A DNA stretch of 64,000 nt from Polyangiales bacterium (GCA_046351555.1 JAXLYI010000006.1:58284-122283), one strand, 5' to 3'; shown: positions 6,631 through 25,976, counted from the stretch's first letter. A program made the numbers and translations. The notes: a model not told the origin generated them from the letters alone.

Positions 6631-6672
6631 CGCGCGGGCCCTGTACCGCCCGCGCGCCGACCGCGATGTCCC

Positions 6673-8271: not shown

Positions 8272-8335
8272 GGGACTCGCTTCGCCTCCGTTGAAACCGC
8301 GGGCCGACCGGTGCACGGTACCGCACCGCACGCCG

Positions 8336-9112
8336 ATGCCGCCGGCCCGTCTCCGCCGTCTCGCCCGTCTGGGCCTCGTCCTCGCGATGCTCGCAACACT
8401 GCGGGCGCTCAGGCAAGAGCCAACTGCACGGCGCCACCTCGACGCCTTCTGGGCGGCCGCCCAGGGCCACGTGGTCGCCCTGGCCGACCGCCTCCGCGAC
8501 GGCGGCGCGGAGGGCGTCGCGCTCTACGCGCTGGTGTACGTGGCGGGCTCGCTCCTCGCCCTGCCCCTGTGGCTCACCTCGGGCATCGCGGGCTACGCCT
8601 GGGGCTTCGGCCGCGGGCTCGCGACGGCGGTGCCCGCCCTCACCCTCGGCGCGACGTGCGCCTTCTGGGCGGGCCGCGCGGTCGCGACGACGCGCCTCGG
8701 CGACGCGCTGCGGGCGCGGCCCCTCTTCCGCCAGGTCGACCTCGTGGTGCGGCGCGACGGGCTCCGCATCACCACGCTCCTCCGCGCGTCGCCCGTGATG
8801 CCACAGAACTTCTTCCCCTTCCTCCTCGGCGCGACGCCGCTGCGCACGCGCGACTTCTCGCTCGCCACCGCGGTGGGGCTCCTGCCGATGACGTGCGTCC
8901 ACGTGTACGCCGGCTCGCTCCTGCACCGCGCGTCCGACCTCTTCGCCGAGGGCCGCGGCCTGCGCGACCCGGCCACGCTGGCGAAGCTCGCCGCGGGCGT
9001 CGCGGTGACGGCGGTCACGATGACGATCGCGGTCCGCCGCTCGCGCGCGCTCATCGCGCAGGCCTACGCCGAGGCCGACGCGGCGGCGAACGCCCCCCCG
9101 CGCGCGCCCTGA
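8336..9112 (+). CDS. DedA/SNARE-associated (TVP38/TMEM64) family membrane protein
   Basis: It has a polytopic membrane profile. The conserved DedA segment reads RASPVMPQNFFPFLLGATPLRTRDFSLATAVGLLP. Start chosen is MPPARLRRLARLGLVLAML. Confidence 0.65.
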   Translation: MPPARLRRLARLGLVLAMLATLRALRQEPTARRHLDAFWAAAQGHVVALADRLRDGGAEGVALYALVYVAGSLLALPLWLTSGIAGYAWGFGRGLATAVPALTLGATCAFWAGRAVATTRLGDALRARPLFRQVDLVVRRDGLRITTLLRASPVMPQNFFPFLLGATPLRTRDFSLATAVGLLPMTCVHVYAGSLLHRASDLFAEGRGLRDPATLAKLAAGVAVTAVTMTIAVRRSRALIAQAYAEADAAANAPPRAP

Positions 9113-9116
9113 CGCG

Positions 9117-10892
9117 TCACGCCTCCAGCGCGTACACGTGGACGAGCCCGCGCCGCGTGCCGACCGCGAGGCGCCCGTCCGGCGCGAACGCGAGCGCCGT
9201 CACCTCGTCGCTCTCGCCGGCGAGCGTGAAGCGCGCGAGCAGGGCGCCGTCCGCGCAGCCGTGGACGAGCACCTGGTCCCGCGACGAGACCGCGCACCGC
9301 GCCCGACCGTCGTCGAGGGCCGACGCGCCGGTCGCGTCGAGGCGCCGGCTCCACCGGACGCTCTCGTGCGCGAGGTCCCAGCAGGCGAGTTCGTTGACGT
9401 AGTCGTAGCCGTTCTCGACCTCGTGCGTGCCGCGGACGATCGCCGCGCCGGCGTCGGGCCACGGCATCCGCGCGGTGAGGTAGGCCCAGTTCATCAGCCG
9501 GTGCTGGCCCGTCGGTGCGCCGTCGGCCAGCGTCAGGAGGCGCAGCTCGTTCTCCACCGCGAAGATCACGTCGCCGCCGCGCACCCAGAGCCCCTCCAGC
9601 CACACGAACGAGCCGCTCACGTGGGTGCGGCGGGTCGCCTCCTGGTGGCGCCACGCGACGGCGCGCCCGAGCGGCCAGCGTGCGACCCACGACGGCGTCG
9701 CGTCGCCGCCGCCGCCGACCACGAGCGAGTCCCCGTCGGGCGCCCAGGCGAGGTGCGTGAGCCGCGCGAAGTCGTGCTCGAAGGCGACCGCCCCGGAGGC
9801 GACCTCCACCACCTGCACGCCGCCGTCACGCAGCACCGCGAGGCGCGCGCCGTCGGGGGAGAGCTCGGTGTGCCGGTGCGCGGCGCCGAGGTCGACGGCG
9901 GTGTGCTCGCCCGCCGCGACGTCCCACACCCGAACGACGGGGTCGCCCTCGGCCTGCACCGCGACGCGCTCCCCCAGCGGCCACCGCACCGCCGCGATCG
10001 GCCCCTCGGCGAGCGAGCCGCCGCACAGCGCCTCACCGCTGCGTCCGTCGAACACCTGGGCCGCGCACGCGCCCACCCGCGCCGCCACCCACCGCGCGCC
10101 CTCGACCAGCGCGACCCCGGCGAGGAAGCGCCCCCGCGCGAGCTCTCGCACGCCTCCCGCGCGGTCGATCACCCACAGCGCGTCGTCGGTGACGGCCGCG
10201 ATGGTGCGCCCGTCACGCGTCGAAGCGAGGGCGATCACGGGCCGCTTGAATCGCCACCGCCGGGCCTCGCGCGCCGCGGCGAGGTCCCACAGCACGAGCG
10301 CCCCGTCGCCCGTCGCGAGGAGCACCGCGCCGTCGTCGAGCGCGTGGGCGACCGACACCTTCGCGACGCCCGGCGCCGGCAGCTCGACGCGCGTCGCGAG
10401 GTCGACCAGCGCCGCGGTCTTCTTGCGCGTGACCCCCGCGGCGACGACGCCCCCGGGCGACACCGTCCAGCGCTTCGCGGGCGACGGCTCGAACAGCTTG
10501 CGCACGCGCCCCTTCTCCCACCACCGCAGGTACGCCTGCCCGTACAGCACGCGCGCGGGGGACCCGAGGGCCGCGTGGGGGCTCCACTGGTTGAGCCCGC
10601 TTTCGATCGCGGGCCCGCGGGCGCCGGTCCGCGCGTCGAGGGTGCCGACGTTCTTCTGGCCCACGAGCAGCAGGGTGTCGCCCTCGGCGGCGATGGCGCG
10701 GCAGTCGAGGGTGGGGTTGGCGCCGCGCGGTGCGCCCGTCGGAACCGCGAAGCCGAAGACGCCCCGCTCGGTGCCGATCCAGAGCGTGTCGGTGCCGTCG
10801 TGGGCGAAGAGGACGCAGCGCGTCCGGGCCAGGGCGAGCGTCGCCTCGCCGAGCGTCGTCGCGCGGCGGGCGCGCAGGGGGAGCCGGTCCAT
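9117..10892 (-). CDS. WD40/PQQ-like beta-propeller repeat protein
   Basis: Repeated ..VxxVAFSPDGxxLAxGxxDGxVxVWD..-like units occur (LAFAPDGRLAVGTRRGLVHVY, LAWAPDGDSLVVGG, ELSPDGARLAVLRDGGVQVVEV). ORF is 591 aa, in frame and well terminated. Confidence 0.6.
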   Translation of the reverse strand: MDRLPLRARRATTLGEATLALARTRCVLFAHDGTDTLWIGTERGVFGFAVPTGAPRGANPTLDCRAIAAEGDTLLLVGQKNVGTLDARTGARGPAIESGLNQWSPHAALGSPARVLYGQAYLRWWEKGRVRKLFEPSPAKRWTVSPGGVVAAGVTRKKTAALVDLATRVELPAPGVAKVSVAHALDDGAVLLATGDGALVLWDLAAAREARRWRFKRPVIALASTRDGRTIAAVTDDALWVIDRAGGVRELARGRFLAGVALVEGARWVAARVGACAAQVFDGRSGEALCGGSLAEGPIAAVRWPLGERVAVQAEGDPVVRVWDVAAGEHTAVDLGAAHRHTELSPDGARLAVLRDGGVQVVEVASGAVAFEHDFARLTHLAWAPDGDSLVVGGGGDATPSWVARWPLGRAVAWRHQEATRRTHVSGSFVWLEGLWVRGGDVIFAVENELRLLTLADGAPTGQHRLMNWAYLTARMPWPDAGAAIVRGTHEVENGYDYVNELACWDLAHESVRWSRRLDATGASALDDGRARCAVSSRDQVLVHGCADGALLARFTLAGESDEVTALAFAPDGRLAVGTRRGLVHVYALEA

Positions 10893-10901
10893 CGCGCGAT
10901 G

Positions 10902-11612
10902 CTACCCCGCATGCACCGACCCCTCGGCGCGCGCTTCGACGACGCGGTCGATGACGCGGTGGTAGAAGCGCGCCACGTGGGCGAGGTAGCCCGCGAAGCC
11001 GAGCGCCTGGAGGGCGCCGAGCGCGACGTGCCAGCCCCCGACGAGGAAGACCCCGGGCGCGGCGAAGACCAGCGCCGTCGCGGCGACCCACGCGGCGACG
11101 GTGGCGGGCATGAACGCGCGGATGTTGAGCTCGTGCTCGCGCTCGAGGGCGTCGAGGAGCGCGGCCCCGGCGGGGCCCGCAACATCGCGGCGGCGCGCCC
11201 GGTACATCCGCCGCTCGCGCACGAACATCCCCCAGAAGAGGAGCACCATCGCGGCGCCGACGGGGTACCAGCGCTCGGGCCGGCCGGCCTGGGAGAAGAG
11301 CGCGGCCTCCAGCATGGCGGCGAGGAAGTAGAGGAAGTTGTGCTCGAGGTCGAGCGGCCACCGGATGACGGTGAAGGCGTGGAGCACCGCGCGCGTCCAG
11401 AGGCCGCACGCGATGAAGATCCCCGCCAGAAGGTAGGGCACCGGCGCGAGCCGCCCCTCCACGAACACCGACCGCGCGCCCTCGACGAGGAACGACAGCG
11501 CCATCCCCTGGACGATGCTGATGACGGTGAGTTCGAAGCTCGCGACGGCGCCGTCGAGCTCGTGGATCGTGCGGGCGCGGCGGGCGCCGAGGTCGGGCGG
11601 CGGGTCGTTCAC
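10902..11612 (-). CDS. polytopic membrane protein, function unknown (co-operonic with the downstream beta-propeller gene)
   Basis: There are four to five hydrophobic helices. Its stop lies 10 nt upstream of the next gene's start on the same strand. Confidence 0.5.
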   Translation of the reverse strand: MNDPPPDLGARRARTIHELDGAVASFELTVISIVQGMALSFLVEGARSVFVEGRLAPVPYLLAGIFIACGLWTRAVLHAFTVIRWPLDLEHNFLYFLAAMLEAALFSQAGRPERWYPVGAAMVLLFWGMFVRERRMYRARRRDVAGPAGAALLDALEREHELNIRAFMPATVAAWVAATALVFAAPGVFLVGGWHVALGALQALGFAGYLAHVARFYHRVIDRVVEARAEGSVHAG

Positions 11613-11668
11613 GGCGCCGTCGGTAGCACCGCCGCCGGGGGCGGGTCTACGGCGGGGCGCGGCGCCCG

Positions 11669-12358
11669 TCAGCCCGGCAGCTTCGCGAGCAGCCCGTCGG
11701 CCCAGTCGCGCAGGGCCTCCAGCTCGCCGCGCACCGCCGCCCGCTCGTCGTCGCTGCCGCCCTTCACCACGGTCACCGCCCGCCGCTGCCAGGCGCCCTT
11801 CGCCACCCGCTCACGGAAGCCGCGCACCTGCGCCGCCACCCGCGCCGGGGTGAGGCGAACCTCGCGCCCGCGCCCCTGCGCCTCGAGCACGCCCGCGACG
11901 TAGGCCCGCGTCGCCCGCTGCGTGAGCTTCATCGCGGTCACGTGCTGCGCGGCCTTGCGCATCGCGGCCTCGTCGCCGAGCGGGAGGAGCAGCTCCTTGC
12001 GCCCGGGCTCCAGGTTGCGCCACGCCTCGTCGGTGATCCGCTTGTCGTGCGCCGCGATGTGGAGCGCCACGTAGAGCAGCCGCTCGCTCAGCCGCAGCGT
12101 GGGCCCGCCCGCGCGGGACAGGAGCTCGCGCCACAGGGGGCTGTCGCGCCGCCCCTCCAGCGCCGCCGACGCGTCGTCGTCGAACACGTGGACCAGCAGC
12201 CAGCGCCCGTAGGAAACGAGCGCGTCCTCCATCACGTCGCGGGTCTCCTCCGCGCGGCGGAGCACCTCGGCGAGCACGCGCCGCTGGGCGGCGTCGAGGC
12301 TGTCGGGGGCGCGGCGGGCGAGCTCGGCGGAGGCGGCGGGGGCCTGCGGCTTCGTCAT
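11669..12358 (-). CDS. hypothetical cytoplasmic protein
   Basis: Clean 230-aa ORF with high GC3. The second Met (MTKPQ..) is preferred as the start. Confidence 0.45.
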   Translation of the reverse strand: MTKPQAPAASAELARRAPDSLDAAQRRVLAEVLRRAEETRDVMEDALVSYGRWLLVHVFDDDASAALEGRRDSPLWRELLSRAGGPTLRLSERLLYVALHIAAHDKRITDEAWRNLEPGRKELLLPLGDEAAMRKAAQHVTAMKLTQRATRAYVAGVLEAQGRGREVRLTPARVAAQVRGFRERVAKGAWQRRAVTVVKGGSDDERAAVRGELEALRDWADGLLAKLPG

Positions 12359-12450
12359 GAAACGCAACGCTACGCCCGCGGCGCGCGGAGGAGCAGAGGG
12401 AGCGCGCGGGGGCGGTGTCGCGGCGCCGGACAGGGCGTCCCGGTGGGGCG

Positions 12451-12475
12451 GAAGGCTATGGCGCCATAGTCTTCG
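12451..12475. repeat. left copy of a perfect 25-bp direct repeat gaaggctatggcgccatagtcttcg (contains the 14-bp palindrome ctatggcgccatag)
   Basis: The sequence is identical to 14364..14388 in the same orientation. It sits 13 bp beyond the abiEii stop. Confidence 0.85.
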
Positions 12476-12487
12476 GGGGGAGCCCCC

Positions 12488-13345
12488 TCACGGGTCGATG
12501 GGGAGCTCATCGACCAGCGCCAGGAGTTCGCTCCAGGCGTCGTCGAAGGCGACGAAGAGCGTCCGCGTGGTGCTCGCGAGCCCGTCGTAGTCCTGGGCCG
12601 CGCGGCGCTTCACCTCGGGGTCGCGAAACGCCGTGCGGGAGACGACGATGCCCCGTGCGGCGGACTTGCGGCGGAGGAAGTCCGCGACCTTGTCCGCGTC
12701 GAGCGGGCGCTGCCGGCGGGTGACCGCGATGTCGAGGAGGTCCTGGCGGCGGTAGCGGTTGCGCACGGGCTGCTGGAGCAACGAGCGCAGCTTCTCCGCG
12801 ACGATGTCCTCGCGCGAGCTCACGCGCAGCTTGTGGACGCCCGCGGTGTCGACCGGCTCGTCCTCGCACACCACCTCGTTGAGGCTCACGTCCAGAGGGA
12901 TCACCAGCGGGCTGGTCTGCCCGCCTTCGAGCCGCTTCCGCAGCGGGGCCTCGTCGGTGAGCGCGTAGCCGACGGAGACCGCGTAGGTGACGAAGGTGGC
13001 GTCGGGCGCGGGCGGCTGTCGCTTCACGCTGTGGACGCGGTAGAGCGTGCCGAGCTTCCGGCCCGTCGCGGCGAGGCTCTCCTGCAGGAGAGTCTTCAGT
13101 TCGTCGCCCTCCAGCGGGTCGGTCGAGGTGAAGTCGAGGTCCTTCGTGCTCCGGTTGGGCGACCACACGAAGTCGAGCGCGTTGCCGCCCTTGAGCACCA
13201 GCGTCGCGCTCAACTGGCGCGAGTCCGACACCGCCCGCAGGATGCCGTACTGCGCGAAGCGCGCCCGCGCCTCCTGCACCGTGACCTTGTTCGCCTTCGC
13301 CCACCCGCCGATGTCGAGGAAGGCGCGCGGGTACTTCTCGTTCAT
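12488..13345 (-). CDS. abiEii: AbiEii/AbiGii-family nucleotidyltransferase toxin (type IV TA / abortive infection, DUF1814)
   Basis: 285 aa. The N-terminal nucleotidyltransferase-like motifs are LVLKGGNALDF....KDLDF. There is a 4-bp overlap with the upstream abiEi-like gene. Size and architecture match AbiEii. Confidence 0.65.
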   Translation of the reverse strand: MNEKYPRAFLDIGGWAKANKVTVQEARARFAQYGILRAVSDSRQLSATLVLKGGNALDFVWSPNRSTKDLDFTSTDPLEGDELKTLLQESLAATGRKLGTLYRVHSVKRQPPAPDATFVTYAVSVGYALTDEAPLRKRLEGGQTSPLVIPLDVSLNEVVCEDEPVDTAGVHKLRVSSREDIVAEKLRSLLQQPVRNRYRRQDLLDIAVTRRQRPLDADKVADFLRRKSAARGIVVSRTAFRDPEVKRRAAQDYDGLASTTRTLFVAFDDAWSELLALVDELPIDP

Positions 13346-15319: not shown

Positions 15320-15781
15320 TCACCGCAGCGCGGGCGTGCCGTCGGCCTCGCCGCACTCCAGCGCGTCGGCGGGCGCCTCGCGCATGGCGCCACGCAGCGA
15401 GACGGGGTCGCGGTTGACGCCCTCGTACGACCCGCGCAGGCGCGCGAGCAGCCCCGCGTCGTCGGCGCACACGCGCGCCGCGTCGCCCTCCTCGTCGACC
15501 GAGAAACGCGCCCCGCCGCGCGTGGCGTAGACGCTGCCGATCCACCCGGGGCCGGGGCTCTGCACCTCCGTGAAGGGCCCCAGGCGGCGCGCCAGCACGA
15601 GCACGATCGCGCCCCACGTCACGCCCCCGCCCTGGCATCGCCGCGACGCGAACAGCGCCCGCGTCGACGCGCTGTTCGCCGTGGCCGTGATGTCGAAGCA
15701 GGCGGGCGCGGCCTTGGGGCACCCCGCCTGTGCGACGGCGAGCAGGGCGACCGAGAGCAGGTGCAGGCGGGGCGTCGTCAC
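15320..15781 (-). CDS. small lipoprotein, function unknown
   Basis: The GTG start gives VTTPRLHLLSVALLAVAQAGC, a lipobox. The ORF track extends 41 codons further upstream without any signal-peptide logic. Confidence 0.4.
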   Translation of the reverse strand: MTTPRLHLLSVALLAVAQAGCPKAAPACFDITATANSASTRALFASRRCQGGGVTWGAIVLVLARRLGPFTEVQSPGPGWIGSVYATRGGARFSVDEEGDAARVCADDAGLLARLRGSYEGVNRDPVSLRGAMREAPADALECGEADGTPALR

Positions 15782-15888
15782 GCGCGCTCCGTACCATCGC
15801 GGTGAGCGGCGGGGCAACGGCGCGCCCCGCGCCGATCTATTCGATTGACGCAGGCGCGGGCGCCGCTTCCAATCGCGCGTGCACTGAC

Positions 15889-16599
15889 ATGCGCGACGTG
15901 ACACGACGCGAGCTCCTCACCGTCGCCGCGGGCACGCTCCTCGGCGCCTGCGCGGACGTGACGGCCGCGGGCCCCGACGCTGGCGACGTGGGCGACGACG
16001 TGGGCCCCGACGCTGGCGACGCGGGTGACGACGCCGGCCCCGACGCCGCGCCCGACGCAGCGCCCCTCGACACGGCGCCCCCCGACGTCGCGCCCGATCG
16101 CCCACGCGATGGAGCCTCTACGCCCGACGCGCCCCTCGACGCGCGCGCGGACCTCGCGCCGGACGCGCCCCCCGACGCCCGCCCCGACGCGGCGCCCGAC
16201 GCACGCCCCGACGCGGCACCCGACGCATCGCTCGACGCGGCCCCGGACGCGCCGCCGCCGTGCGGCCTCACCGACCGCTACCTCGCGTCGCTCCCGGTCG
16301 CTTCCGTGCCCGCGCGCGGCGGCGTGGTCGACCCCGACCTGCGCGTGGTGGTCGCGCGCGACGCCCGCGGCGTCTACGCCTTCTCGGCGGTGTGCCCGCA
16401 CTTCGGCTGCGTCGTCGAGGTGGGAACCGGCGCCTCCACCGTGTGCCCGTGCCACGGCTCCACCTTCGACGACGACGGCACGCGGCTCCGCGGCCCGGCG
16501 ACGCGCTCGCTGATCAACCACCCGATCGCCCTCTGCCTGGGCCGTGTGTACGTCGACCGCTCGCGCTCCGTCCCCGCCGGCACCCGCACGCCGGGCTGA
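15889..16599 (+). CDS. Tat-exported Rieske [2Fe-2S] domain protein with an Asp/Pro/Ala-rich linker
   Basis: The twin-arginine signal is MRDVTRRELLTVAAGTLLGACA. A low-complexity PDA(A/R)PDA linker follows. The Rieske boxes are CPHFGC ... CPCHGS. Confidence 0.75.
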   Translation: MRDVTRRELLTVAAGTLLGACADVTAAGPDAGDVGDDVGPDAGDAGDDAGPDAAPDAAPLDTAPPDVAPDRPRDGASTPDAPLDARADLAPDAPPDARPDAAPDARPDAAPDASLDAAPDAPPPCGLTDRYLASLPVASVPARGGVVDPDLRVVVARDARGVYAFSAVCPHFGCVVEVGTGASTVCPCHGSTFDDDGTRLRGPATRSLINHPIALCLGRVYVDRSRSVPAGTRTPG

Positions 16600-16609
16600 A
16601 AGGTCTCTC

Positions 16610-17833
16610 ATGCGCCCCTCCACCCGTCTCCGCACGAGCCTCCTGACCGCCCTCGCGACGATGGGCCTCCTGCCCGCGTGTGCCAGCACGACCGGCGCCA
16701 GTGACGCGGCCGTCACGCCCGACGTCGCGGCCCTGCCGGACGCGGCCCCGCCGGACGCCGCTGTCCCGGACGCGCCCGCGGACGTGATCACCGCGCCCGA
16801 CGTCCCGCAGACGTGCCCGGTGATGCCCTCGACGCGCTGCCTGAGCCCCGCGGACTCGGTGCGCAATGTGATGTTCCCGCCGGGCAAGGTGACGGTGCCC
16901 GACGGGGGGCTGCCGGTGCCCGACGGGGCCGTGCGCCCGAGCGGGTGCGCGCGGCCCGAGGTCGTGTCGAACGACTGCTGCAACACCGCGTCGGCGCTGC
17001 GCGAGGAGGGCGGGGCGTGCTGTTACACCTTCTGCACCCAGGCGTGCTGCGGGCGCCCGCTGCGCGTCGGCGGGGCGGCGCGGGTCGCGGGGGTGGAGGC
17101 GCGACGCGACTGGGGCGCGGCGTCGCCGGGGACGTCGTCGGTCGACCCGGCCACGCGCGCGGCGCTCGCGGCGGCGTGGCGCGAAGACGCGCGGCTCGAG
17201 CACGCGTCGATCGCGTCGTTCGCGCGCTTCACGCTGGAGCTCGTCGCGCAGGGGGCGCCGCCCGAGCTCGTCGCCGACGCGCAGCGCGCGGGGCTCGACG
17301 AGGTCGACCACGCGCGCCGGTGCTTCGCCCTCGCCGCCCGCCACGGCGCCGGCGACCTCGGCCCCGCCCCGCTGGACCTCTCCGGCTTCGCGCTCGCGGG
17401 CTCGCTGGAGGATCTCCTCGACGCGGTGATCGCCGAGGGGTGCGTGGGCGAGACGCTCTCGGCGTTCCTGGCGGACGCGCAGCGCGAGCGGGCGACCGAC
17501 CCGGCGGCGCGCGAAGCCCTCGCGGTGATCGCCGCGGACGAGTCCCGCCACGCCGCCCTCGCGTGGCGCTTCGCGGCCTGGGCGCTCGGGTCGCGGCCCG
17601 ACCTCCGCCCGGCCGCCGCGCGGGCCTTCGCATCTGCTCTCGGCGGCCCCCTCCCCCGTCCGCGCCGCGAGCCCGCCGACGTCGACCCCGCCGCGTGGAA
17701 CGCCCACGGCCGCCTCACCGCGCCGCAGGTCGACCGCGCGCTCGACGAGGGCGTCCGCGCGGTGATCCGACCCTGCCTCGCGGCGCTGCTCGCTCAGCCC
17801 GCGAGCACGACGCGCAGCGCGGCGTCGGCGTAG
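16610..17833 (+). CDS. lipoprotein with an N-terminal vicinal-Cys cluster and a C-terminal ferritin-like (diiron-type) four-helix domain
   Basis: The lipobox is LLPACAS. CC pairs occur in SNDCCNTAS...GGACCYTFCTQACCGRP. The C-terminal half carries three E-x-x-H-type motifs (LEHAS, DEVDHARR, DESRHAAL). It starts 10 nt after the Rieske stop, with a GAAAGG RBS. Confidence 0.6.
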   Translation: MRPSTRLRTSLLTALATMGLLPACASTTGASDAAVTPDVAALPDAAPPDAAVPDAPADVITAPDVPQTCPVMPSTRCLSPADSVRNVMFPPGKVTVPDGGLPVPDGAVRPSGCARPEVVSNDCCNTASALREEGGACCYTFCTQACCGRPLRVGGAARVAGVEARRDWGAASPGTSSVDPATRAALAAAWREDARLEHASIASFARFTLELVAQGAPPELVADAQRAGLDEVDHARRCFALAARHGAGDLGPAPLDLSGFALAGSLEDLLDAVIAEGCVGETLSAFLADAQRERATDPAAREALAVIAADESRHAALAWRFAAWALGSRPDLRPAAARAFASALGGPLPRPRREPADVDPAAWNAHGRLTAPQVDRALDEGVRAVIRPCLAALLAQPASTTRSAASA

Positions 17834-17840
17834 CGCCCCT

Positions 17841-18488
17841 TCACCCCGCGGAAGCATCGGGCGGCACCGGCACGAACGCCTCCGCGTGCCGCCGCACCCA
17901 CGCCATCAGCAGCGCCGGCAGCTCCATCGTCGCGAACGTCTCCAGCGCCTTCGCGGCCTTCGGGCTGCCCAGCTTCACGCGCCCCGGCGTCCGCGTGGTC
18001 CCCTTCGCGACGGCCTCGAACTGCGCCGCGAGCGCCTCCAGCCCGAGCGCGCGGGCGGCCTCCGGGGTGTGGGCGACGAGGGCCGGGTCGCAGTCCATGA
18101 AGTACATCGCGAGGCCGTTGCGTGAGCACTGCCCGGCGAGCCCGTCGAGCGTGAGCCACGCGCGGACGGCCGGCGGCGCCGCCTCCACCCTCCGCCACTC
18201 CAGCAGGGTCGCCATGAGCCAGCCGTCGAGCACCTCGGCCCACAGCTCGGCGTCGGGGGCGTCCCGCACCCACTCCGGCGTCGGCTCCCACGGCGGCACG
18301 CGCACGAAGCCGCCCGCGAGCTGCGCGGCGATGAGCGCGTCCTGCTCGGCCCGCGGGATCGTCCGCGTGACGGGCTCCGGGTCGTCGTCGAACGCGATCT
18401 CGACGCGGCTCTGCGCCCCCTGCGGGGACACCGCCCACGTCACCCCCTCGGCCTCGTTGCGCAGCGTCGTGCGGAGTCTCCGGCTCAT
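17841..18488 (-). CDS. hypothetical cytoplasmic protein
   Basis: 216-aa ORF from MSRRLRTTL. Coding composition. No recognizable motif. Confidence 0.4.
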   Translation of the reverse strand: MSRRLRTTLRNEAEGVTWAVSPQGAQSRVEIAFDDDPEPVTRTIPRAEQDALIAAQLAGGFVRVPPWEPTPEWVRDAPDAELWAEVLDGWLMATLLEWRRVEAAPPAVRAWLTLDGLAGQCSRNGLAMYFMDCDPALVAHTPEAARALGLEALAAQFEAVAKGTTRTPGRVKLGSPKAAKALETFATMELPALLMAWVRRHAEAFVPVPPDASAG

Positions 18489-18585
18489 CGGCGGCGATTC
18501 TCCACCGCCCGCGCGCGCCCGCCAAAGAAACGCCGCGCCGCGCCCCGTGGACACGCGCGCGAGGGTCGCGGTATCTGTCGTCCGC

Positions 18586-19656
18586 GTGCGCGTCGGTTCG
18601 ATCGTCACGGTGCTCGTCGGCGCGGCCTGCGGGGCGCTCCATGCGGGCCCGTCGTGCGCCCAGTCGACGCGCGTGCGGCTGCGCTACGAGGCCGCCGCGG
18701 ACGCCGCGTGCCCCGACGACGTCGCCCTCCGCCGGGCCGTGACGCGCCGCCTCGGGTACGACCCCTTCGACGAAGGCGCGGCGGCGGCGGTCACGGCCAC
18801 CATCCGGCGCGCCCGCCGCGGGCTGCGCGCGTCGCTCGCGGTCGAGGGGCTGCGCGGCGGACGCCCGCGACAGATCCGCACGACCCACGGCGACTGCGCC
18901 GTGCTCGTCGACGCGCTCGCCGTCTCGCTCTGCGTGCTCATCGACCCGCGGAGCCTCACGCGCGCGGCCCCGCCCGAAGAAACACCCGCACCGCCTCCGC
19001 AAGCGCCGCCACCGCCTCCGCAAGCGCCACCACCAACGGCGGCAACACCGCCGCCTCCGCCCCCTGCCCTGCCGCCGCCACCACCGCCCGCCGCGCCGCC
19101 GCGCACGCGCCGCGGGGCGTTGGACGTTCGGTTCGAAGTCGGCGCGCTGCTCGGCGCCGTCCCCGGCGAGGACGCGGCCGCGCAGGTGCAGGCGCGCCTC
19201 GCGCTGGGGCTCGGCTGGCGCCGCGGGCGCCTCGTGCTCGCGGGGTACCTCTGGGGCTCGTTGAGCGGGAGCCAGGCGCTGGTGGTCCGTTCGGCGGGCG
19301 GCCAGGCGCAGGTGACCGTGCACGGCGTCCCCGTGGGCGTCGCGCTCATGCCGTGCGTCGACCTCCGCCCCGTCGAGCTCTGCGGGTCCGTGCAGGTCGG
19401 GGCTTTCGTCGGGTGGGGCGAGGGGTACCCCGACCCGCAGACCAACGTCGGGGCGCTGCTCGCGCTCGGCGCGCGGGCGGTGTGGACGCTGCCGTTCTCG
19501 CTCGGGCCGGTCGCGCCCTACGTCGCGCTCGACGCGTCGTGGATGGCCGTCCGCCCCGAGCTCCACCTCACGGTCGCGCGCGAAGACCAGAGCGTCTGGA
19601 CGCCCGCGGGGTACCTCCTCCACGGCGGCGCCGGGGTCCGCGTCGCGCTCCCGTGA
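18586..19656 (+). CDS. secreted protein with a proline-rich spacer, immediately upstream of the ECF sigma gene
   Basis: The GTG start gives a signal-like IVTVLVGAACGALHA. The spacer PAPPPQAPPPPPQAPPP is encoded by a 24-bp tandem DNA repeat (about 19000..19050). The C-terminal half is rich in beta-strand-like alternation. It stops 14 nt before the sigma-factor ORF. Confidence 0.45.
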   Translation: MRVGSIVTVLVGAACGALHAGPSCAQSTRVRLRYEAAADAACPDDVALRRAVTRRLGYDPFDEGAAAAVTATIRRARRGLRASLAVEGLRGGRPRQIRTTHGDCAVLVDALAVSLCVLIDPRSLTRAAPPEETPAPPPQAPPPPPQAPPPTAATPPPPPPALPPPPPPAAPPRTRRGALDVRFEVGALLGAVPGEDAAAQVQARLALGLGWRRGRLVLAGYLWGSLSGSQALVVRSAGGQAQVTVHGVPVGVALMPCVDLRPVELCGSVQVGAFVGWGEGYPDPQTNVGALLALGARAVWTLPFSLGPVAPYVALDASWMAVRPELHLTVAREDQSVWTPAGYLLHGGAGVRVALP

Positions 19657-19669
19657 TGCCCTCCGTCGA

Positions 19670-20272
19670 TTGCGTGAGAATCGGGGCCGCGACCCGGCAA
19701 TGGGGTGGGCCGTGTTGACGTCGCTCCTGCGCGCCGAGGACGAAGCCCCCGACCCGACGGTCGACGCGGAGGCGTTCCGCGCGCTCTACCAGCGCGAGTT
19801 CGACTTCGTCTGGAACGTCGTCCGCCGCCTCGGCGTCGCCGAGCGCGACCTGCCCGACGTGGTTCACGACGTGTTCGTGGTGGTGTACCGGCGCTTCTCC
19901 ACCTACGACCCCTCGCGGCCGCTGCGCCCGTGGCTCTTCGGCATCGCCTTCCGGGCGCAGGCCTCGCACCGCCGTCGGCTGCGCGAGGCGGGCCGCGCCG
20001 ACCGTGAGCCCGACACCCTCCAGGGCGACGCCCCCGCGCCCGACGAGCGGATGATCGAGCGCGAGCGGCGCGCGCTGGTCCACACGATCCTGCAGGGCCT
20101 CTCGCCCGAGCACCGCGCGGTGCTGGTCGGGCACGAGCTGGAGGGGCTCCCGATGGCCGCGCTCTCCGAGGCGCTCGACGTCCCGGTGAAGACGCTCTAC
20201 TCCCGGCTGCGCGCCGCGCGCGAGGAGTTCGTCGCCGCGATGCGCCGCCACGCGCTGCGAGGTGCGCGATGA
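19670..20272 (+). CDS. ECF-type RNA polymerase sigma-70 factor
   Basis: Region 2 reads FRALYQREFDFVWNVVRRLGV...DVVHDVFVVVYRRF. Region 4 reads LSPEHRAVLVGHELEGLPMAALSEALDVPVKTLYSRLRAARE. The alternative ATG at 19700 (MGWAV..) may be the true start. Confidence 0.75.
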   Translation: MRENRGRDPAMGWAVLTSLLRAEDEAPDPTVDAEAFRALYQREFDFVWNVVRRLGVAERDLPDVVHDVFVVVYRRFSTYDPSRPLRPWLFGIAFRAQASHRRRLREAGRADREPDTLQGDAPAPDERMIERERRALVHTILQGLSPEHRAVLVGHELEGLPMAALSEALDVPVKTLYSRLRAAREEFVAAMRRHALRGAR

Positions 20273-20961
20273 GCGACGACCTCCCGCCGCTGCCGCCCGA
20301 GGCCCGCGCGCTCTTCGACGCCGCGCGCGAGGCTCCGCCCCCGCCCGACGCGGCGCGGGCGGCCGTGTACGAACGGGTGCTTCGAACGGTCGCCGCGCCC
20401 GGCCCTGGCAACCCGCCCGCAGCCGCGGCGCCCGCGTCGTCGCTCGCGGTCAAGTCCGTCGCCGCGGTCGGCGCCGCGCTCGCGGTCGCCGCCGGCGTCA
20501 CGGTCGCGCTCTGGTCGGGCACGCGCGTCCCCGCGCCGCGCACCGTCCCCGCAGCGGCACCGCGCGTGGCGCCCGCATCGCCCGCGCCACCCGTCGCTCC
20601 CGCGGCGCCGCGCGAGGCGTTGCACGACACCGATGCCTCCGCCGCGCCCGCCGACGCGGCGTCCCCACGCCCCCACGCCCGCGCGCCGGAGGACGACCTC
20701 GCCGCGGAGGTCGCGCTCGTCGACGAAGCCCGCGCGACCCTCGCACGCGGCGACGCGGCCGGCGCGCAGCGCGTGGTGCGGCGGTACCGACACCTGTCGC
20801 ACCGACGGCTCGACGCGGAGATGGACGTGCTGGAGGTCCGCGCGGCGGTGCTCGGCCACGACCCCGCGGGCGCCGGGCGACTGGCCGAGCGGTTCCACCG
20901 TCGCCACCCCGGGAGCGTGCTCGCCGCGCAGGTCGACGACGCGGTGCGCGGCGCCCGATGA
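20269..20961 (+). CDS. single-pass anti-sigma factor (putative)
   Basis: It overlaps the sigma stop by 4 bp (ATGA). Architecture is a short cytoplasmic N-terminus, one TM helix (LAVKSVAAVGAALAVAAGVTVALW) and a helical periplasmic domain. Confidence 0.5.
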   Translation: MSDDLPPLPPEARALFDAAREAPPPPDAARAAVYERVLRTVAAPGPGNPPAAAAPASSLAVKSVAAVGAALAVAAGVTVALWSGTRVPAPRTVPAAAPRVAPASPAPPVAPAAPREALHDTDASAAPADAASPRPHARAPEDDLAAEVALVDEARATLARGDAAGAQRVVRRYRHLSHRRLDAEMDVLEVRAAVLGHDPAGAGRLAERFHRRHPGSVLAAQVDDAVRGAR

Positions 20962-21602
20962 CCCAACGCGTGCGCCACGGACTCCTGACGGCGGTTCTCT
21001 TCGGCGCGGCCTGCGTGCGGATCGACCTGGGCGCGATCGAGTTCGCGCGCGGCGACGCGTCCGACGGGGGCGACGCGCCCACGCTCGACGCGGCCGACGT
21101 TGCCGACGCGTCGCCCGACGAGGGCGTCGACGCGCCCGACGTCGCCGTGGACGCGTTCTCGGAGGACGTCGCGACGCCGCGCGACCTCGCACCCGACGCC
21201 ACGGACGTGGGCGACGCGCCCGACGTCGTCGACGCCGCGCTCGATGCCATGGACGCGGTGACTGACGGGGCAAGCGACGTCGCGGACGCCGCGCTCGACG
21301 CCGTAGATGCCGTGGCCGACGCATCCGATGCAGCGATGCCCGGGTGTCCGGCCGGATGGACGCGCTGCGGGGCCGTGTGCGTCGACCTCAACGCCGACGA
21401 CGCCCACTGCGGCGCGTGCGGGCTCGCCTGCCCCGCCGGCTCCCCCTGCACGTCGGGCGCGTGCGGCGTGCGCTGCAGCACCCCGATGGTCATGTGCGGC
21501 GTGACCTGCGTCGACCTCGCCACCGACCCTTCGCACTGCGGGTTCTGCGGCGCCGCCTGCCCCGCCGGCCGCCGCTGCGTGGGCGGCGTGTGCGTGCCGT
21601 AG
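20958..21602 (+). CDS. Cys-rich repeat lipoprotein (paralogue A)
   Basis: The ATG overlaps the anti-sigma stop (ATGA). The lipobox is LFGAAC. An Asp/Ala/Pro/Val-rich tether precedes C-terminal modules of the form CG.VCVDL..D..HCG.CG..CP.G..C..G.CG. The protein ends ..HCGFCGAACPAGRRCVGGVCVP. Confidence 0.65.
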   Translation: MTQRVRHGLLTAVLFGAACVRIDLGAIEFARGDASDGGDAPTLDAADVADASPDEGVDAPDVAVDAFSEDVATPRDLAPDATDVGDAPDVVDAALDAMDAVTDGASDVADAALDAVDAVADASDAAMPGCPAGWTRCGAVCVDLNADDAHCGACGLACPAGSPCTSGACGVRCSTPMVMCGVTCVDLATDPSHCGFCGAACPAGRRCVGGVCVP

Positions 21603-21736
21603 CGGGCGACGTCGATTCGGTGAGAAGTCGCCGCGCGGTCGCGCAATCGGGGTCACCGAGGACGCGCCGAGTCGTCCCTGGCCTGCCGCCGGGGACGTGG
21701 GGGCGACGTCTGCGCTCGGGTCACAAGGAGCGAACC

Positions 21737-22837
21737 ATGAGGAGTCCCCAGAGCGTCTGTCGTGCCGCGACGATCATCATGCTGACCGCGGCGGCCTGCG
21801 CCGACGACCCGCCGGTCGCGCCCGCGCCGACGGACGGCGTCGCCACGATCGGCCGCGCCGGAGGCCGCGTGTCCCTCTCGAACGGCGCGTCGGTGGAGGT
21901 GCCCGCGGGGGCCCTCGCCGCCGACGTCCGCATCAGCCTCCGCGCGGGCGACGCCGCGGCCGCGCTGCCCGACGGAGCCACGAGCGCGGGGGCGGTGGTG
22001 GACTTTGCGCCGAGCGGGCAGCGCTTCGCGGCGGCCGTGACGATCACGCTGCCGACGACCGCCCTCGCGTCGGCGGTGTACACCCGGCCAACGACGGCGG
22101 ACGCCTGGGCGCGGGTCGAGGGCGCGAGCTTCGACGCCGCGCGGCGCGTGATCACCGTGCGGACGACGCACTTCTCGGAGTACGTCCCCGCGGCCGAGCC
22201 CGCGCCGCCCGACGCGGCTGTGCCCGACGCGGCTGTGCCCGACGCGGCGGCCCCTGACGCGGCTGCGCCCGACGCGGCTGCCCCTGACGTGACTGCGCCT
22301 GACGTGACTGCGCCCGACACGAACCCGCTCGACGCACGCACCCCCGACGCGACCGCACCGGATGCCTCCGCGCCCGACGCGAGCCCGCCTGATGCGACTG
22401 CGCCCGACGCGACCGCGCCCGACGCGAGCGCGCCCGACGCGCCCGACGTCTGCGCGCCGCCGCGGACCCGCTGCGGCGCTGCCTGCGTCGACCTCAACAC
22501 CGACGGCCTCAACTGCGGCTCGTGCGGGACCGCCTGCGTCGCGGACGTCCCCTGCATGGCGGGGGCGTGCATCCGGCCCTGCGCGCGCCCGTTCGTCCTG
22601 TGCTCGGGCCGGTGCGTCGACGCCAACACCGACGCCACGAACTGCGGCGCCTGCGGGGTCTCGTGCGCGCCCGGGATGGCTTGCACGGCTGGCGTGTGCG
22701 GCTCGCCGTGCGCTGCGCCCCGGATCCTCTGCGGGTCGGTCTGCGCCGACCTCAACACCGACACGTCGCACTGCGGGTTCTGCGGCGCCGCGTGCCCCGC
22801 CGGCCGCCGCTGCGTCGGCGGGGTTTGCATGCCCTGA
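21737..22837 (+). CDS. Cys-rich repeat lipoprotein (paralogue B) with a long PDA(A/V/T)xPDA tether
   Basis: An AAGGAG RBS precedes it. The lipobox is LTAAAC. About 17 tandem PDAxA pentapeptides occur. There are four C-terminal Cys modules. The last 25 aa are nearly identical to paralogue A (..HCGFCGAACPAGRRCVGGVCMP). Confidence 0.7.
   Translation: MRSPQSVCRAATIIMLTAAACADDPPVAPAPTDGVATIGRAGGRVSLSNGASVEVPAGALAADVRISLRAGDAAAALPDGATSAGAVVDFAPSGQRFAAAVTITLPTTALASAVYTRPTTADAWARVEGASFDAARRVITVRTTHFSEYVPAAEPAPPDAAVPDAAVPDAAAPDAAAPDAAAPDVTAPDVTAPDTNPLDARTPDATAPDASAPDASPPDATAPDATAPDASAPDAPDVCAPPRTRCGAACVDLNTDGLNCGSCGTACVADVPCMAGACIRPCARPFVLCSGRCVDANTDATNCGACGVSCAPGMACTAGVCGSPCAAPRILCGSVCADLNTDTSHCGFCGAACPAGRRCVGGVCMP
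22187..22442 (+). repeat. tandem 15-bp coding repeats (gcNcccgacgcggcN...) encoding (A/V)PDAA pentapeptides within paralogue B
   Basis: The units ccgacgcggctgtgcccgacgcggctgtgcccgacgcggcggcccctgacgcggctgcgccc... are visible directly in the sequence. Confidence 0.7.
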
Positions 22838-22853
22838 GGGGGCGCGGCGCGCG

Positions 22854-24263
22854 TCAGAGCTGCACGCGCACGGGTGCGAAGCGGGCGACGTTGGTGCCGT
22901 CGCCGAGCTGGCCGTACTCGTTGCGCCCCCAACACCACACCGTCCCATCGGCCTTGAGGGCGCAGGTGTGATAGGCCCCCGCGGCGACCTGGACGACGTC
23001 CGAGAGGGGCACCGTCGCGGGGGTGGCCACCGTGGCGCCGTACACGTCGGCGCCGACCTGGCCGCCGTGGTTCATCCCCCAGCAGGAGACGGTGCGGTCG
23101 CGGCGCAAGGCGCAGAAGTGAAACGCGCCCGCGGTGATCGCGGTGACCTGCGTGATCGCGGCGCGGGTCGGCGCGTTGAGCGGCGTCACGCCGCTGCTCC
23201 CGTTGCCGGCCTCGCCCATGAGGGCCGACCCGGCGCAGTACACGTTGCCCCCCGCGACGACGGCGCAGTAGCTCTCTTGAGCCGCCGCCACCGCGGTGCA
23301 CTGCCCGAGCGGCACCGACCAGAGGCCGTCGCCCAGGGTCGCGTAGACCTTGAGGTACGCGTTCGGGTCCAGCACGAGCGCGTCGTTGGCGGCGCGGTCG
23401 CTGGGGAAGGACGTGGACGTCAGCACGACGCCCTGCGCTTCGAAGGTCACGCTGGTGTTGATGTTGGCGACGGTCGTCCAGCAGTGCCAATCCGAGCCGA
23501 AGTTGCCGCACATCGTCTGCCTCCCCGTCGCGATGGCGATCGGCTCGACGTCGAAGTTGGTGCGCGGCACGAGGGAGGTGCCCGAGCCGTCGTCCGCGAG
23601 GAGCCCGCCGAAGTTGCCCCAGCAGGCCAGTCCGTTGGCGGTCGTGGCGCAGGCGTAGCGCTGCCCCGCGGCCACCTGCGTGGCGTTGACGAGGCCAGCG
23701 ATCGTGCGGGGGGCGCGCGCGTTGGCGGTGGTCCCGTCGCCGAGCTGCCCTTGATCGTTGAGGCCCCACGCGCGGACGGAGCCGTCCTGCATGAGCGCGT
23801 ACGTGGCGTAGCTCTCTGGCCCTGAGAAGATGGCGCGCACCGGCTGGACGAAATCCACCGTGCCGGGCGTGGTGACGTTGGGGCGCAGCGTGAGCGCCAG
23901 GCGCGTGAGCACCCCCGGGGTGATGGTCGCGCTCACGGCCTCGCCCACCCACGTCGCGACGGTGCCCGCGGCGACGCTCCCGCAGGCGACGTTGAAGGCG
24001 CTCGAGCGGAAGGCGTACGCGCCCGCGGCGAGGTAGCCGAGGTCGAAGCTCGCCGCCGCGCCGGGGGCCACGGCGAAGTTGCGCGTGGTGTCGGCGGTCG
24101 CGTTGGGCGCGCGGTAGACGACGCGGAGGCAGCCGACGCCCGCGGGGACGGACTGCACCTCGGCGAGGGCGCTGCCGACGTCGTCGGCGGGCGGCTCGCC
24201 GAAGCAGCCGGCGGCGGTGAGCGCGGTGACGAAGGGGAGGGCAGCGGAGGGGCGGGTACGCAC
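22854..24263 (-). CDS. RCC1-repeat (regulator of chromosome condensation-like) beta-propeller lipoprotein
   Basis: The GTG start gives VRTRPSAALPFVTALTAAGC, a lipobox. Repeats with the ..WGxNxxGQLGDG.. signature occur (VRAWGLNDQGQLGDG, VWCWGRNEYGQLGDG, VSCWGMNHGGQVG). Confidence 0.65.
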   Translation of the reverse strand: MRTRPSAALPFVTALTAAGCFGEPPADDVGSALAEVQSVPAGVGCLRVVYRAPNATADTTRNFAVAPGAAASFDLGYLAAGAYAFRSSAFNVACGSVAAGTVATWVGEAVSATITPGVLTRLALTLRPNVTTPGTVDFVQPVRAIFSGPESYATYALMQDGSVRAWGLNDQGQLGDGTTANARAPRTIAGLVNATQVAAGQRYACATTANGLACWGNFGGLLADDGSGTSLVPRTNFDVEPIAIATGRQTMCGNFGSDWHCWTTVANINTSVTFEAQGVVLTSTSFPSDRAANDALVLDPNAYLKVYATLGDGLWSVPLGQCTAVAAAQESYCAVVAGGNVYCAGSALMGEAGNGSSGVTPLNAPTRAAITQVTAITAGAFHFCALRRDRTVSCWGMNHGGQVGADVYGATVATPATVPLSDVVQVAAGAYHTCALKADGTVWCWGRNEYGQLGDGTNVARFAPVRVQL

Positions 24264-24435
24264 GGCGGGTCGATCCTGGGAGCGCGTCGGCGCGACGTGC
24301 GCCGAGGACGCGCGAGCCGTGAGCAGGGCCCGTGCCGCCACGAAACAGCCTTCTTTTTGTGGCTTTTGCGTGTCTTCGGGGCGAGACACCGCTGCAACGC
24401 CCCGTGGCGCGGTCGTCACGCGTCGGGCGCGGGCT

Positions 24436-25344: not shown

Positions 25345-25593
25345 ATGATCCGCGTGAACGTCGCCGAGGCGAAGGCCCACCTGTCGGAGTACCTCGACAA
25401 GCTCGAGGGCGGGCAGACGGACGTCGTGGTGCTGTGCCGCCGCAACGAGCCGATCGCGGAGATCCGCCCCCTCCCTCGCGCGGAGGAGAAGCCCCGCCCG
25501 GTGGGGCGCGCGAAGGGGACGTTCAGCGTGCCGAAGACGTTCTTCGAGCCGCTGCCGGACGAGTTCGTCGCGGCGTTCGCGGGCGAGACGTGA
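25345..25593 (+). CDS. Phd/YefM-family type II antitoxin
   Basis: 82 aa. The N-terminal signature is MIRVNVAEAKAHLSEYLDKLEGGQTDVVVL. It overlaps the downstream PIN toxin start (GTGA). Confidence 0.7.
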   Translation: MIRVNVAEAKAHLSEYLDKLEGGQTDVVVLCRRNEPIAEIRPLPRAEEKPRPVGRAKGTFSVPKTFFEPLPDEFVAAFAGET

Positions 25594-25976
25594 AGGTCCT
25601 CCTCGACACCTGCGCGTTCCTCTGGATCATCGCGGACGCGCCCGAGCTCTCGGAGGCGGCGAGGCGGTGCTTCCGCGACCCGGCCAACGAGGTCTTCCTG
25701 AGCGCGGCGTCCGCGTGGGAGATCTCCGTCAAGCACGCGCTCGGCCGCCTGCCGCTGCCCGAAGCCCCGGCGCGCTTCGTCCCCGCGCAGCGCCGCGCCC
25801 ACCGCATCGAGGCCCTCCCGCTCGACGAGGAGGCCGCGCTGCGCGTCAGCGGTCTGCCCGACTGGCACAAGGACCCGTTCGACCGGATCCTCATCTGCCA
25901 GGCGCTCGCGCAAGGCATGACGCTGCTCACGCCCGACCCCCTCATCCAGCGGTACCCCGTCACCACGCTCTGGTGA
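25590..25976 (+). CDS. vapC: VapC-family PIN-domain toxin (type II TA)
   Basis: The GTG start gives VKVLLDTCAFLWII with the first PIN acidic residue. Later acidic residues are at ..SAASAWEISVKHA.. and ..PFDRILICQA.. Length is 128 aa. Confidence 0.75.
   Translation: MKVLLDTCAFLWIIADAPELSEAARRCFRDPANEVFLSAASAWEISVKHALGRLPLPEAPARFVPAQRRAHRIEALPLDEEAALRVSGLPDWHKDPFDRILICQALAQGMTLLTPDPLIQRYPVTTLW

Follow-up and report, generated by a model that had tools for sequence, protein, structure and literature searches.

An ECF sigma/anti-sigma module of Myxococcota with a predicted outer-membrane barrel partner and lipoproteins that vary by clade

Myxobacteria carry dozens of sigma factors of the extracytoplasmic function (ECF) type, almost none of which has, to our knowledge, a known input or output. 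The closest described arrangements are the FecA-FecR-FecI system (FecIRA), the ECF sigma/anti-sigma pairs encoded with SusC/SusD in Bacteroides, RpoE-RseA-RseB or AlgU-MucA-MucB, and sigE-cseA-cseB-cseC of Streptomyces, in which the lipoprotein CseA dampens signalling. Within the Myxococcota, the DdvS-DdvA pair of M. xanthus joins an ECF sigma factor to an anti-sigma factor with a TPR-containing periplasmic domain; DdvA has a zinc-binding anti-sigma domain (ZAS) and a TPR-CHAT periplasmic domain of ~900 residues, and controls CBASS/CRISPR genes (PMC11506125). Here we describe a locus at positions 18586-22837 of a 64-kb stretch of Polyangiales DNA (GCA_046351555.1, JAXLYI010000006.1:58284-122283; GC content ~76%), the whole of which we call the window, where genes for an ECF sigma factor and a putative anti-sigma factor are flanked by a gene that we call X and by the genes of two Cys-rich lipoproteins, A and B. 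The logic of this locus resembles that of FecIRA, Bacteroides ECF/SusCD, RpoE-RseAB and sigE-cseA, and the domains that define those systems were tested for and are absent. A first-pass annotation, made from the sequence alone, had found no name for such an arrangement; in general terms it can be named, as an ECF sigma/anti-sigma operon with accessory envelope proteins.

We read the locus, with a probability of about 0.6, as an ECF module that regulates its own expression and has an outer-membrane barrel as partner, with the lipoproteins as its dedicated sigma-dependent output. All five open reading frames (ORFs) lie on the plus strand in the order given by the first-pass annotation: X (18586-19656), the sigma factor (19712-20272), the putative anti-sigma factor of 230 aa (20269-20961), lipoprotein A (20958-21602) and lipoprotein B (21737-22837). 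Both ATGA overlaps that it had reported are present, one joining the sigma and anti-sigma genes (20269-20272) and the other the anti-sigma and lipoprotein A genes (20958-20961). It was exact, too, on the 134-nt gap between A and B (21603-21736) and on the Shine-Dalgarno sequence AAGGAG of lipoprotein B (21725-21730), which lies 6 nt 5' of the ATG and is invariant in the relatives L002 and L003. What the overlaps can carry is narrower than had been claimed. At least two further 4-bp overlaps were found elsewhere in the window by a crude scan, a lower bound since the gene caller missed genes, and because such overlaps are nothing unusual in DNA of 76% GC they indicate operon membership, but do not prove the stoichiometric co-expression of lipoprotein A with the anti-sigma factor that had been read from them.

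About 90 related loci (L numbers below) were compared overall. A scan by sigma alignment of one genome per GTDB species returned at least 365 relatives, the best 80 of which were analysed, and hidden Markov models (HMMs) built for X, the sigma factor, the anti-sigma factor and the Stig1 repeat were searched against the loci. Synteny, whose absence the first-pass annotation had named as evidence against its grouping, is conserved. The whole five-gene block with both 4-bp overlaps is kept in L002 (61% anti-sigma identity) and in L003/L004 (56%), where ~142 nt separate a Stig1 lipoprotein gene from one for a lipoprotein with ZU5 and Stig1 domains, and in L010 (51%) the block is kept from X to the Stig1 lipoprotein, where the contig stops. 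The ATGA junction between the anti-sigma and lipoprotein A genes is common to the window, L002, L003 and L010, and the genes flanking the block in L002 and L003 are unlike those of the window. The five genes are a conserved unit, kept as far as the contigs extend in these three independent relatives.

More distant members retain X, sigma and anti-sigma only. In about 65-70 of the 80 GTDB loci X lies directly upstream and the anti-sigma gene directly downstream of the sigma gene, and this triad is found in Polyangiales, Labilithrix, Minicystis, Nannocystaceae, Sandaracinaceae, Kofleriaceae and Myxococcaceae; the conserved core, recurring across the Myxococcota, is X together with the ECF sigma factor and the anti-sigma factor. 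Word-indexed protein searches were insensitive for X and the anti-sigma factor (7-8 matches each) because of the Pro/Ala low-complexity stretches in both, and an exhaustive profile search was used; for the anti-sigma factor it reached 9,128 representatives of clusters at E <= 1e-10, almost all of them full-length at 225-270 aa. In several genomes the module is present in paralogous copies (L005; L033; L011 with L039; L031 with L064). At L005 two X-sigma-anti-sigma modules stand in tandem (6470-13246), the first coupled to a membrane metallophosphatase gene and the second followed by genes for two small Cys-rich lipoproteins that are not of the Stig1 type.

The evidence that ties the lipoproteins to the sigma factor is a promoter-like motif present twice in the window. 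One copy, GTCGATT-N4-GAGAAT-N17-CAAT (19665-19705, plus strand; -35-like box TGAGAA at 19675-19680, -10-like box CAAT at 19698-19701), stands directly before the sigma gene, and the other, GTCGATT-N4-GAGAAG-N17-CAAT (21611-21651, plus strand; TGAGAA at 21621-21626, CAAT at 21644-21647), lies in the A-B gap ~90 nt before the start of lipoprotein B. With both strands of the window counted, TCGATTNNNNGAGAA occurs only at 19666 and 21612, against 0.2 occurrences expected by chance, and TGAGAA-N14-19-CAAT has exactly two occurrences, one ahead of sigma and one ahead of lipoprotein B. The first copy is kept at the same place in L002, L003 and L010 and the second before lipoprotein B in L002 and L003, where the clade variant TGAGAA-N17-CAAT is likewise present exactly twice, ahead of these two genes. 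Across the window, L002 and L003 the DNA of the A-B gap has a mean column identity of 87%, compared with 56-61% identity of the anti-sigma proteins of these relatives to that of the window. The nearest outgroups, L011, L012, L014, L017, L024 and L038, also have the motif before sigma; a family-wide equivalent, a T-rich stretch followed by CCGTGACGGAT-N~14-CCAAT (also written GTGACGGAT-N~15-CCAAT), precedes sigma in about 30 loci, and a conserved bipartite motif occupies this fixed position in about 40 loci in all. We take its -10-like element, CCAA(T/A), to resemble the TCAAA of RpoE-type promoters.

A second site is also found beyond the window clade. A weight matrix trained on the pre-sigma sites, with those at the anti-sigma stop kept out of the training, places a site at the anti-sigma stop codon, shortly ahead of the lipoprotein gene; 12 loci have it at a score of >=22 and 7 more at lower scores, and these anti-sigma-stop windows account for less than 1% of the searched sequence. 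Many relatives begin their lipoprotein gene 40-150 nt beyond the anti-sigma stop and have a separate promoter-like motif for it; the X gene usually has none. The -35-like box often includes the TGA that ends the gene before it, be that X or anti-sigma (...CCG TGA CGG...), as at the CCGTGACGGAT boxes of L031 (9293-9322), L034 (9233-9263), L054 (9187-9216), L075 (9557-9586) and others, where the same bases would end one gene and begin the next transcription unit. A TGA stop inside the box also creates spurious GTGA overlap starts, and many GTGA overlaps of 4 bp in other loci were rejected as coupling, the bases being those of the -35-like box CCGTGACGG itself.

We infer that the motif is the promoter used by this sigma factor. 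Its place before the sigma gene would then imply autoregulation, and its place before lipoprotein B is the reason for reading the lipoproteins as outputs of the sigma factor. A scan of 18300-23100 for consensus promoters and terminators found nothing, and such a scan is uninformative for ECF promoters and for DNA of this GC content. RNAalifold draws a long stem at 21590-21645 in which the 3' end of lipoprotein A pairs with sequence after the -35-like box, enclosing that box; a few compensatory changes are seen among the only three, GC-rich, sequences compared, and this stem could be a terminator, an attenuator or nothing.

Most loci with a co-directional gene after the anti-sigma gene, a position that we call the slot, encode a lipoprotein there; a strict pattern detects 35 of them, and inspection brings the number to about 50. 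Many of these proteins have, immediately behind the lipobox Cys, a short motif, C-x(2-6)-[VLIM]-[DNTQES]-[LVI]-G (summarised as C-x(2-6)-φ-[D/N]-φ-G), which we call the tether motif; examples are CVRIDLG in the window, CGGPKLDLG (L013), CQIAVVDLG (L038), CKGTPLDLG (L068) and CAESSLDVG (L080). Of the 35 slot lipoproteins 19 have it, as opposed to 7 among the 192 remaining lipobox ORFs of these loci (odds ratio 31, p = 7e-13), and most of the seven also adjoin a module; by module, it is present in 31 of 60 with X compared with one of 11 without X. As a candidate identity for the motif we considered the known sorting signal of M. xanthus lipoproteins and rejected it; the rules described there, for Lys at +2 and Ala at +7, do not account for it (PMC3222651). 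In a metagenome set collected by sigma alignment, with 8 family members that have an anti-sigma gene, lipoprotein cargo and second promoter-like motifs are present as well.

The heads that follow the tether region are diverse. Stig1 heads occupy the slot in L014, L017, L066, L067, L080, L090 and the window clade; others are Big_1/invasin (L075), RCC1 (L056), nucleoside-hydrolase-like (L073) and PQQ/BamB-like (L029), and the remainder are Ig-like, VWA-type, CKQSCDKMKFF-type, otherwise Cys-rich or nothing recognisable. Head type follows the sigma subclade and the tether motif is scattered over most subclades, which together indicate a long-standing and co-diversifying association of lipoprotein and module. 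Stig1-type genes fill the slot in 7 of the 80 distant loci, with 4 elsewhere in ~1.1 Mb of flanks. The first-pass annotation had asked whether the Cys module recurs beside ECF pairs; it does in those seven slots, but the element that comes back throughout the family is the short N-terminal lipoprotein motif, joined to many kinds of head, and not the Cys module; similarly, the proposed coupling to a lipoprotein extends to the wider family in that the slot gene usually encodes one, whereas the ATGA junction is confined to the small clade of the window. No slot lipoprotein was found in L006, where a convergent gene occupies the slot, L011 or L012, and the slot gene of L005a, L016 and L030 encodes something else. 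At L063 no co-directional gene follows the anti-sigma gene, and two tether-motif lipoproteins lie nearby on the opposite strand (CSNRVDLG and CGGHVDLG, at 10573 and 11907, minus strand); one promoter-like match lies upstream of the second of them (11952-11982, minus strand) and another just inside the first gene (10410-10443, minus strand). At L005 a tether-motif lipoprotein (CGSTLDIG) is encoded divergently upstream of the modules, at 6491 on the minus strand.

The longest ORF of the sigma gene begins at TTG 19670, from which the frame is open, and the start conserved among relatives is GTG 19712 or TTG 19715; the start region GTGTTGACGTCGCTC is common to L002 and L003, and the start codons GTGTTGACG are found in L010 too. 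The gene product consists of the sigma2 and sigma4 domains only, at 186-189 aa falls within the ~170-200 aa of ECF (group 4) sigma-70 factors, and passes Pfam Sigma70_r2 (34.6 bits, cut-off 24), Sigma70_r4_2 (35.3 bits, cut-off 25.7) and TIGR02937 (71 bits, cut-off 42.9). The putative anti-sigma factor, identical to the hypothetical protein U0324_10385 of a Polyangiales metagenome-assembled genome and called hypothetical by NCBI, has a cytoplasmic N-terminal segment of ~55 aa with a conserved PPLPPE motif, a single hydrophobic span (about aa 64-82) and, beyond a Pro/Ala-rich linker, a helical, TPR-like periplasmic C-terminus of ~80 residues (about aa 140-230), where sub-threshold matches to TPR_14, TPR_6 and YfiO (BamD) recur in most relatives. 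Searches against Pfam and NCBIfam gave no match to ASD/ZAS, RskA or any other anti-sigma model, even at E <= 5, and Pfam gave none to FecR or DUF4880-type domains. The role is assigned, as putative, from position, topology and family conservation: the gene overlaps sigma by ATGA, the protein has the single-pass topology of transmembrane anti-sigma factors, and it holds the same position in more than 65 loci.

X, which the first-pass annotation had passed over as a secreted Pro-rich protein, is better conserved beside the pair than any other partner. It is a predicted outer-membrane barrel whose periplasmic N-domain is carried on a Pro-rich linker. After a signal peptide comes an N-terminal alpha/beta domain with two conserved Cys (aa 27-128, nt 18664-18969), then the Pro-rich linker (about nt 18970-19116) and the predicted C-terminal barrel of eight beta-strands (about nt 19117-19653). 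In the AlphaFold model (pLDDT 74) the N-domain is beta-alpha-beta-beta-beta-alpha, the linker is disordered and the barrel, of ~180 residues, is OmpA/NspA-like. The N-domain matches TolB-N, LptE and CsgG-type folds and gave no STN match; no Pfam or NCBIfam model covers X, which is a hypothetical protein at NCBI.

The shared C-terminal Cys module to which the first-pass annotation had drawn attention is significant in both lipoproteins and belongs to a known domain, Stig1 or MXAN_6577-like. It matches Pfam Stig1 (PF04885) with 49.4 bits in A and 58.5 bits in B (cut-off 24.1); against NCBIfam NF041328 (MXAN_6577-like Cys-rich protein, cut-off 100) B passes with 108 bits and A stays below at 78.7. 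Two Stig1-like repeats are present in A (21345-21464 and 21474-21593) and three in B (22451-22570, 22580-22699 and 22709-22828). In A, Stig1 is the only domain that Pfam finds, and no MucB_RseB domain was detected. Both proteins are predicted to be lipidated, their N-termini fitting a PROSITE-type lipobox pattern at Cys19 of A (nt 21012; LFGAAC, MTQRVRHGLLTAVLFGAAC) and Cys21 of B (nt 21797; LTAAAC, MRSPQSVCRAATIIMLTAAAC); in A this Cys opens the motif CVRIDLG (21012-21032), which is followed by an acidic low-complexity linker.

Lipoprotein B has a ZU5-like domain (about 21842-22180) and then a PDA-repeat linker before its Stig1-like repeats. The ZU5 match is a marginal pass (23 bits against a Pfam cut-off of 21); the best PDB profile match of this N-domain is the ZU5 domain of ankyrin-2 (E = 1.3e-3), and a PDB sequence search with the N-domain alone matched nothing. 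The domain ends in THFSEY (22166-22183, aa 144-149; HFS at 22169-22177), a sequence unchanged in L002 and L003. The ZU5-type domains of PIDD, Unc5CL and Nup98 have HFS as their autoproteolysis motif, so that lipoprotein B may likewise cleave itself and release its PDA-repeat and Stig1 part. Over the Cys region A and B are 45% identical (E = 5e-32). Their last repeats are almost identical in DNA in the window (21527-21580 and 22762-22815), and in L002 the last repeat of A pairs with the middle repeat of B (8965-9084 and 9992-10111); this homogenisation within genomes, differing between the window and L002, suggests ongoing gene conversion between the two genes.

Elsewhere in the window, a 1,683-aa ORF (49482-54533, plus strand) has dozens of matches to the Stig1-repeat HMM, including a module at 50493-50558, and has the appearance of a giant protein built of Cys-rich repeats, with no relation to the sigma module. 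Convergent on lipoprotein B is a gene for a 521-aa RCC1-repeat protein with a lipobox-like N-terminus (22854-24419, minus strand; LTAAGCFGEPPADDVG); no promoter-like motif was found upstream of it, and RCC1 is also the head of the slot lipoprotein of L056. Upstream of the locus, at 15730-17833 on the plus strand, are encoded a Rieske-domain protein and a 429-aa protein, with signal or lipobox-like N-termini and with PDA-rich low-complexity linkers like those of lipoproteins A and B. By eye, translations at about 25350-25976 (plus strand; MIRVNVAEAKAHLSEYLDKLE..., then ...VLLDTCAFLWIIADAPELS...) resemble an antitoxin/PIN-toxin pair.

On the observed anatomy, synteny, recurrence of the promoter-like motif, tether enrichment and fold predictions we build a course of events into which inference brings the use of the motif as promoter by this sigma factor, the kind of signal, the docking and what the Stig1 heads do. 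The X-sigma-anti-sigma module would be autoregulated from a sigma-type promoter at the head of the sigma gene, and the slot gene would be driven by a second copy of that promoter or, in the window clade, by the direct ATGA junction. In the window, lipoprotein A, with no promoter of its own, would belong to the autoregulated operon, and lipoprotein B would depend on its own promoter copy. An envelope signal that inactivates the anti-sigma factor would thereby yield more sigma factor, more anti-sigma factor and the two Stig1-type Cys-rich lipoproteins, and the tether motif may dock cargo lipoproteins, A included, to X or to the TPR domain of the anti-sigma factor.

Several points weigh against this reading. 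The promoter is known as a sequence motif only, and in the window clade its -10-like element ends only ~10 nt before the conserved GTG/TTG start of sigma, so that a leaderless or very short-leader mRNA would be needed. The anti-sigma assignment has no match to any anti-sigma domain model behind it and draws on position, topology and conservation, and the barrel model of X was built on 8 sequences only (pLDDT 74). Recognition of the tether motif was post hoc, and it is missing from roughly half of the slot lipoproteins, such as those of the VWA and CKQSCDKMKFF types, and from lipoprotein B; among the 8 metagenome members the strict motif occurs once, in a near-duplicate of L028. Dependence on the sigma factor would, moreover, be compatible with a sensor role, by analogy with FecA, which is both target and sensor.

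The first-pass annotation had indeed proposed the Cys-rich lipoprotein as sensor or partner of the anti-sigma factor. Set out in full, lipoprotein A would be its stoichiometric partner or co-sensor, comparable to RseB/MucB, CnrX or Streptomyces CseA; through the tether it would bind the periplasmic TPR-like domain and modulate sigma release, with the Stig1 head as the ligand-sensing part. The conservation of the ATGA junction in the window, L002, L003 and L010 fits this, as does the combination of a constant N-terminal motif with variable heads, expected of exchangeable sensor heads on a constant partner, and TPR domains, such as the periplasmic end of the anti-sigma factor resembles, typically bind short peptides. 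The coupling is, however, clade-specific, and many relatives carry a separate promoter-like motif ahead of the lipoprotein gene; a lipoprotein is missing altogether from some members (L006, L011, L012), others have a different kind of slot gene (L005a, L016, L030), and about half of the slot lipoproteins lack the tether. As it was put, the proposal is not supported, the motif before lipoprotein B pointing to an output of the sigma factor, and in its full form we hold it possible, though on the unlikely side. That the adjacency has no meaning at all, common Stig1-type genes having landed by an ECF pair and 4-bp overlaps being the compact packing of high-GC DNA, would agree with the Stig1-like repeats elsewhere in the window (50493, in the ORF at 49482-54533) and at unrelated positions of other loci, and with the 4-bp overlaps elsewhere in the window. 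Yet L002 and L003 retain the block amid altered flanks, lipoprotein B is preceded by a duplicate of the promoter-like motif, the slot is strongly enriched in both lipoproteins and tether motif, and head type co-varies with sigma subclade, which makes chance adjacency very improbable.

The lipoproteins might also belong to the input. X and a lipoprotein would then form an outer-membrane complex, in the style of RcsF-OMP or TbpA/TbpB, that receives the signal and relays it through the periplasmic N-domain of X to the anti-sigma factor, a TonB-independent counterpart of FecA-FecR-FecI with exchangeable receptor heads. No neighbour of the pair is as constant as X, in which an outer-membrane barrel and a periplasmic domain are predicted to be joined by a long Pro-rich linker; presence of X and of the tether motif are correlated (31/60 against 1/11), and several genomes have more than one paralogous module, like multi-copy CSS systems. 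Eight-stranded barrels, on the other hand, have no wide lumen, and X usually lacks the promoter-like motif, and we consider such a complex quite improbable as the route of the signal. A rather unlikely wider possibility is that the family is a form of TonB-independent cell-surface signalling, widespread in Myxococcota, in which X holds the lipoprotein by the tether C-x(2-6)-φ-D-φ-G. If so, the exchangeable heads (Stig1, RCC1, Ig-like, VWA and others) would be receptors, the signal would pass through the periplasmic domain of X to the TPR-type anti-sigma factor and on to the ECF sigma factor, and the many paralogous modules would each have an external ligand of their own to sense; lipoproteins that are receptors and not cargo would make this a new class of trans-envelope signalling. 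Our preferred reading remains that of an autoregulated module with the lipoproteins as its output.

The module family is a large, uncharacterised, Myxococcota-wide type of envelope signalling, defined by a fixed outer-membrane partner, a promoter-like motif, a lipoprotein cargo that varies by clade and a candidate docking motif; its anti-sigma family alone has thousands of cluster representatives. With these elements named, the regulon and the protein contacts of the module become directly testable. No such Myxococcota group is described in the main text of the ECF re-classification paper (PMC7826278), and no description of an X-sigma-anti-sigma-lipoprotein module was found in the literature searched, which did not extend to the ECF Hub supplements, so the sigma group may already carry a number there.

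Among known systems, DdvS-DdvA is similar in having several sigma-dependent promoters in its locus (here promoter-like motifs), but the protein described here has 230 aa, ~80 aa of TPR-like helices and no ZAS motif, and we rejected DdvS/DdvA as members of the same family (PMC11506125). As in FecA-FecR-FecI, an outer-membrane barrel with a periplasmic N-domain, a single-pass anti-sigma factor and an ECF sigma factor are encoded together in a three-compartment layout, a target gene is (here putatively) driven by the same sigma factor, and several genomes have paralogous copies. Where that system has a TonB-dependent transducer of 22 strands, X is a predicted 8-stranded barrel of ~180 residues with an N-domain unlike STN; the anti-sigma factor has no FecR domain, and the promoter-like motif is borne by the sigma gene and usually not by X. 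The ECF sigma/anti-sigma pairs of Bacteroides with SusC/SusD share with this family a variable lipoprotein, there SusD, that accompanies the barrel. RpoE-RseA-RseB and AlgU-MucA-MucB are autoregulated ECF sigma/anti-sigma operons, as the present one would be, and run on into the gene of a periplasmic partner protein; here the MucB_RseB domain is absent, a lipoprotein whose head varies is encoded downstream, and a dedicated outer-membrane barrel gene is added. The Streptomyces sigE-cseA-cseB-cseC operon, too, encodes a lipoprotein within an ECF sigma operon, but there is no sequence relationship, sigE is under a two-component system and not an anti-sigma factor, and its Gram-positive host has no outer membrane. 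The C-terminal Cys modules of A and B, finally, match the models of both Stig1 (PF04885) and NF041328 proteins; in plants, STIG1 proteins are small secreted Cys-rich ligands, and we know of no function for the bacterial Stig1 or MXAN_6577-like members. In A and B the domain is predicted to be lipid-anchored, stands in tandem repeats (A falling below the NF041328 cut-off) and is putatively placed under an ECF sigma factor, which gives this bacterial Cys-rich domain its first regulatory context.

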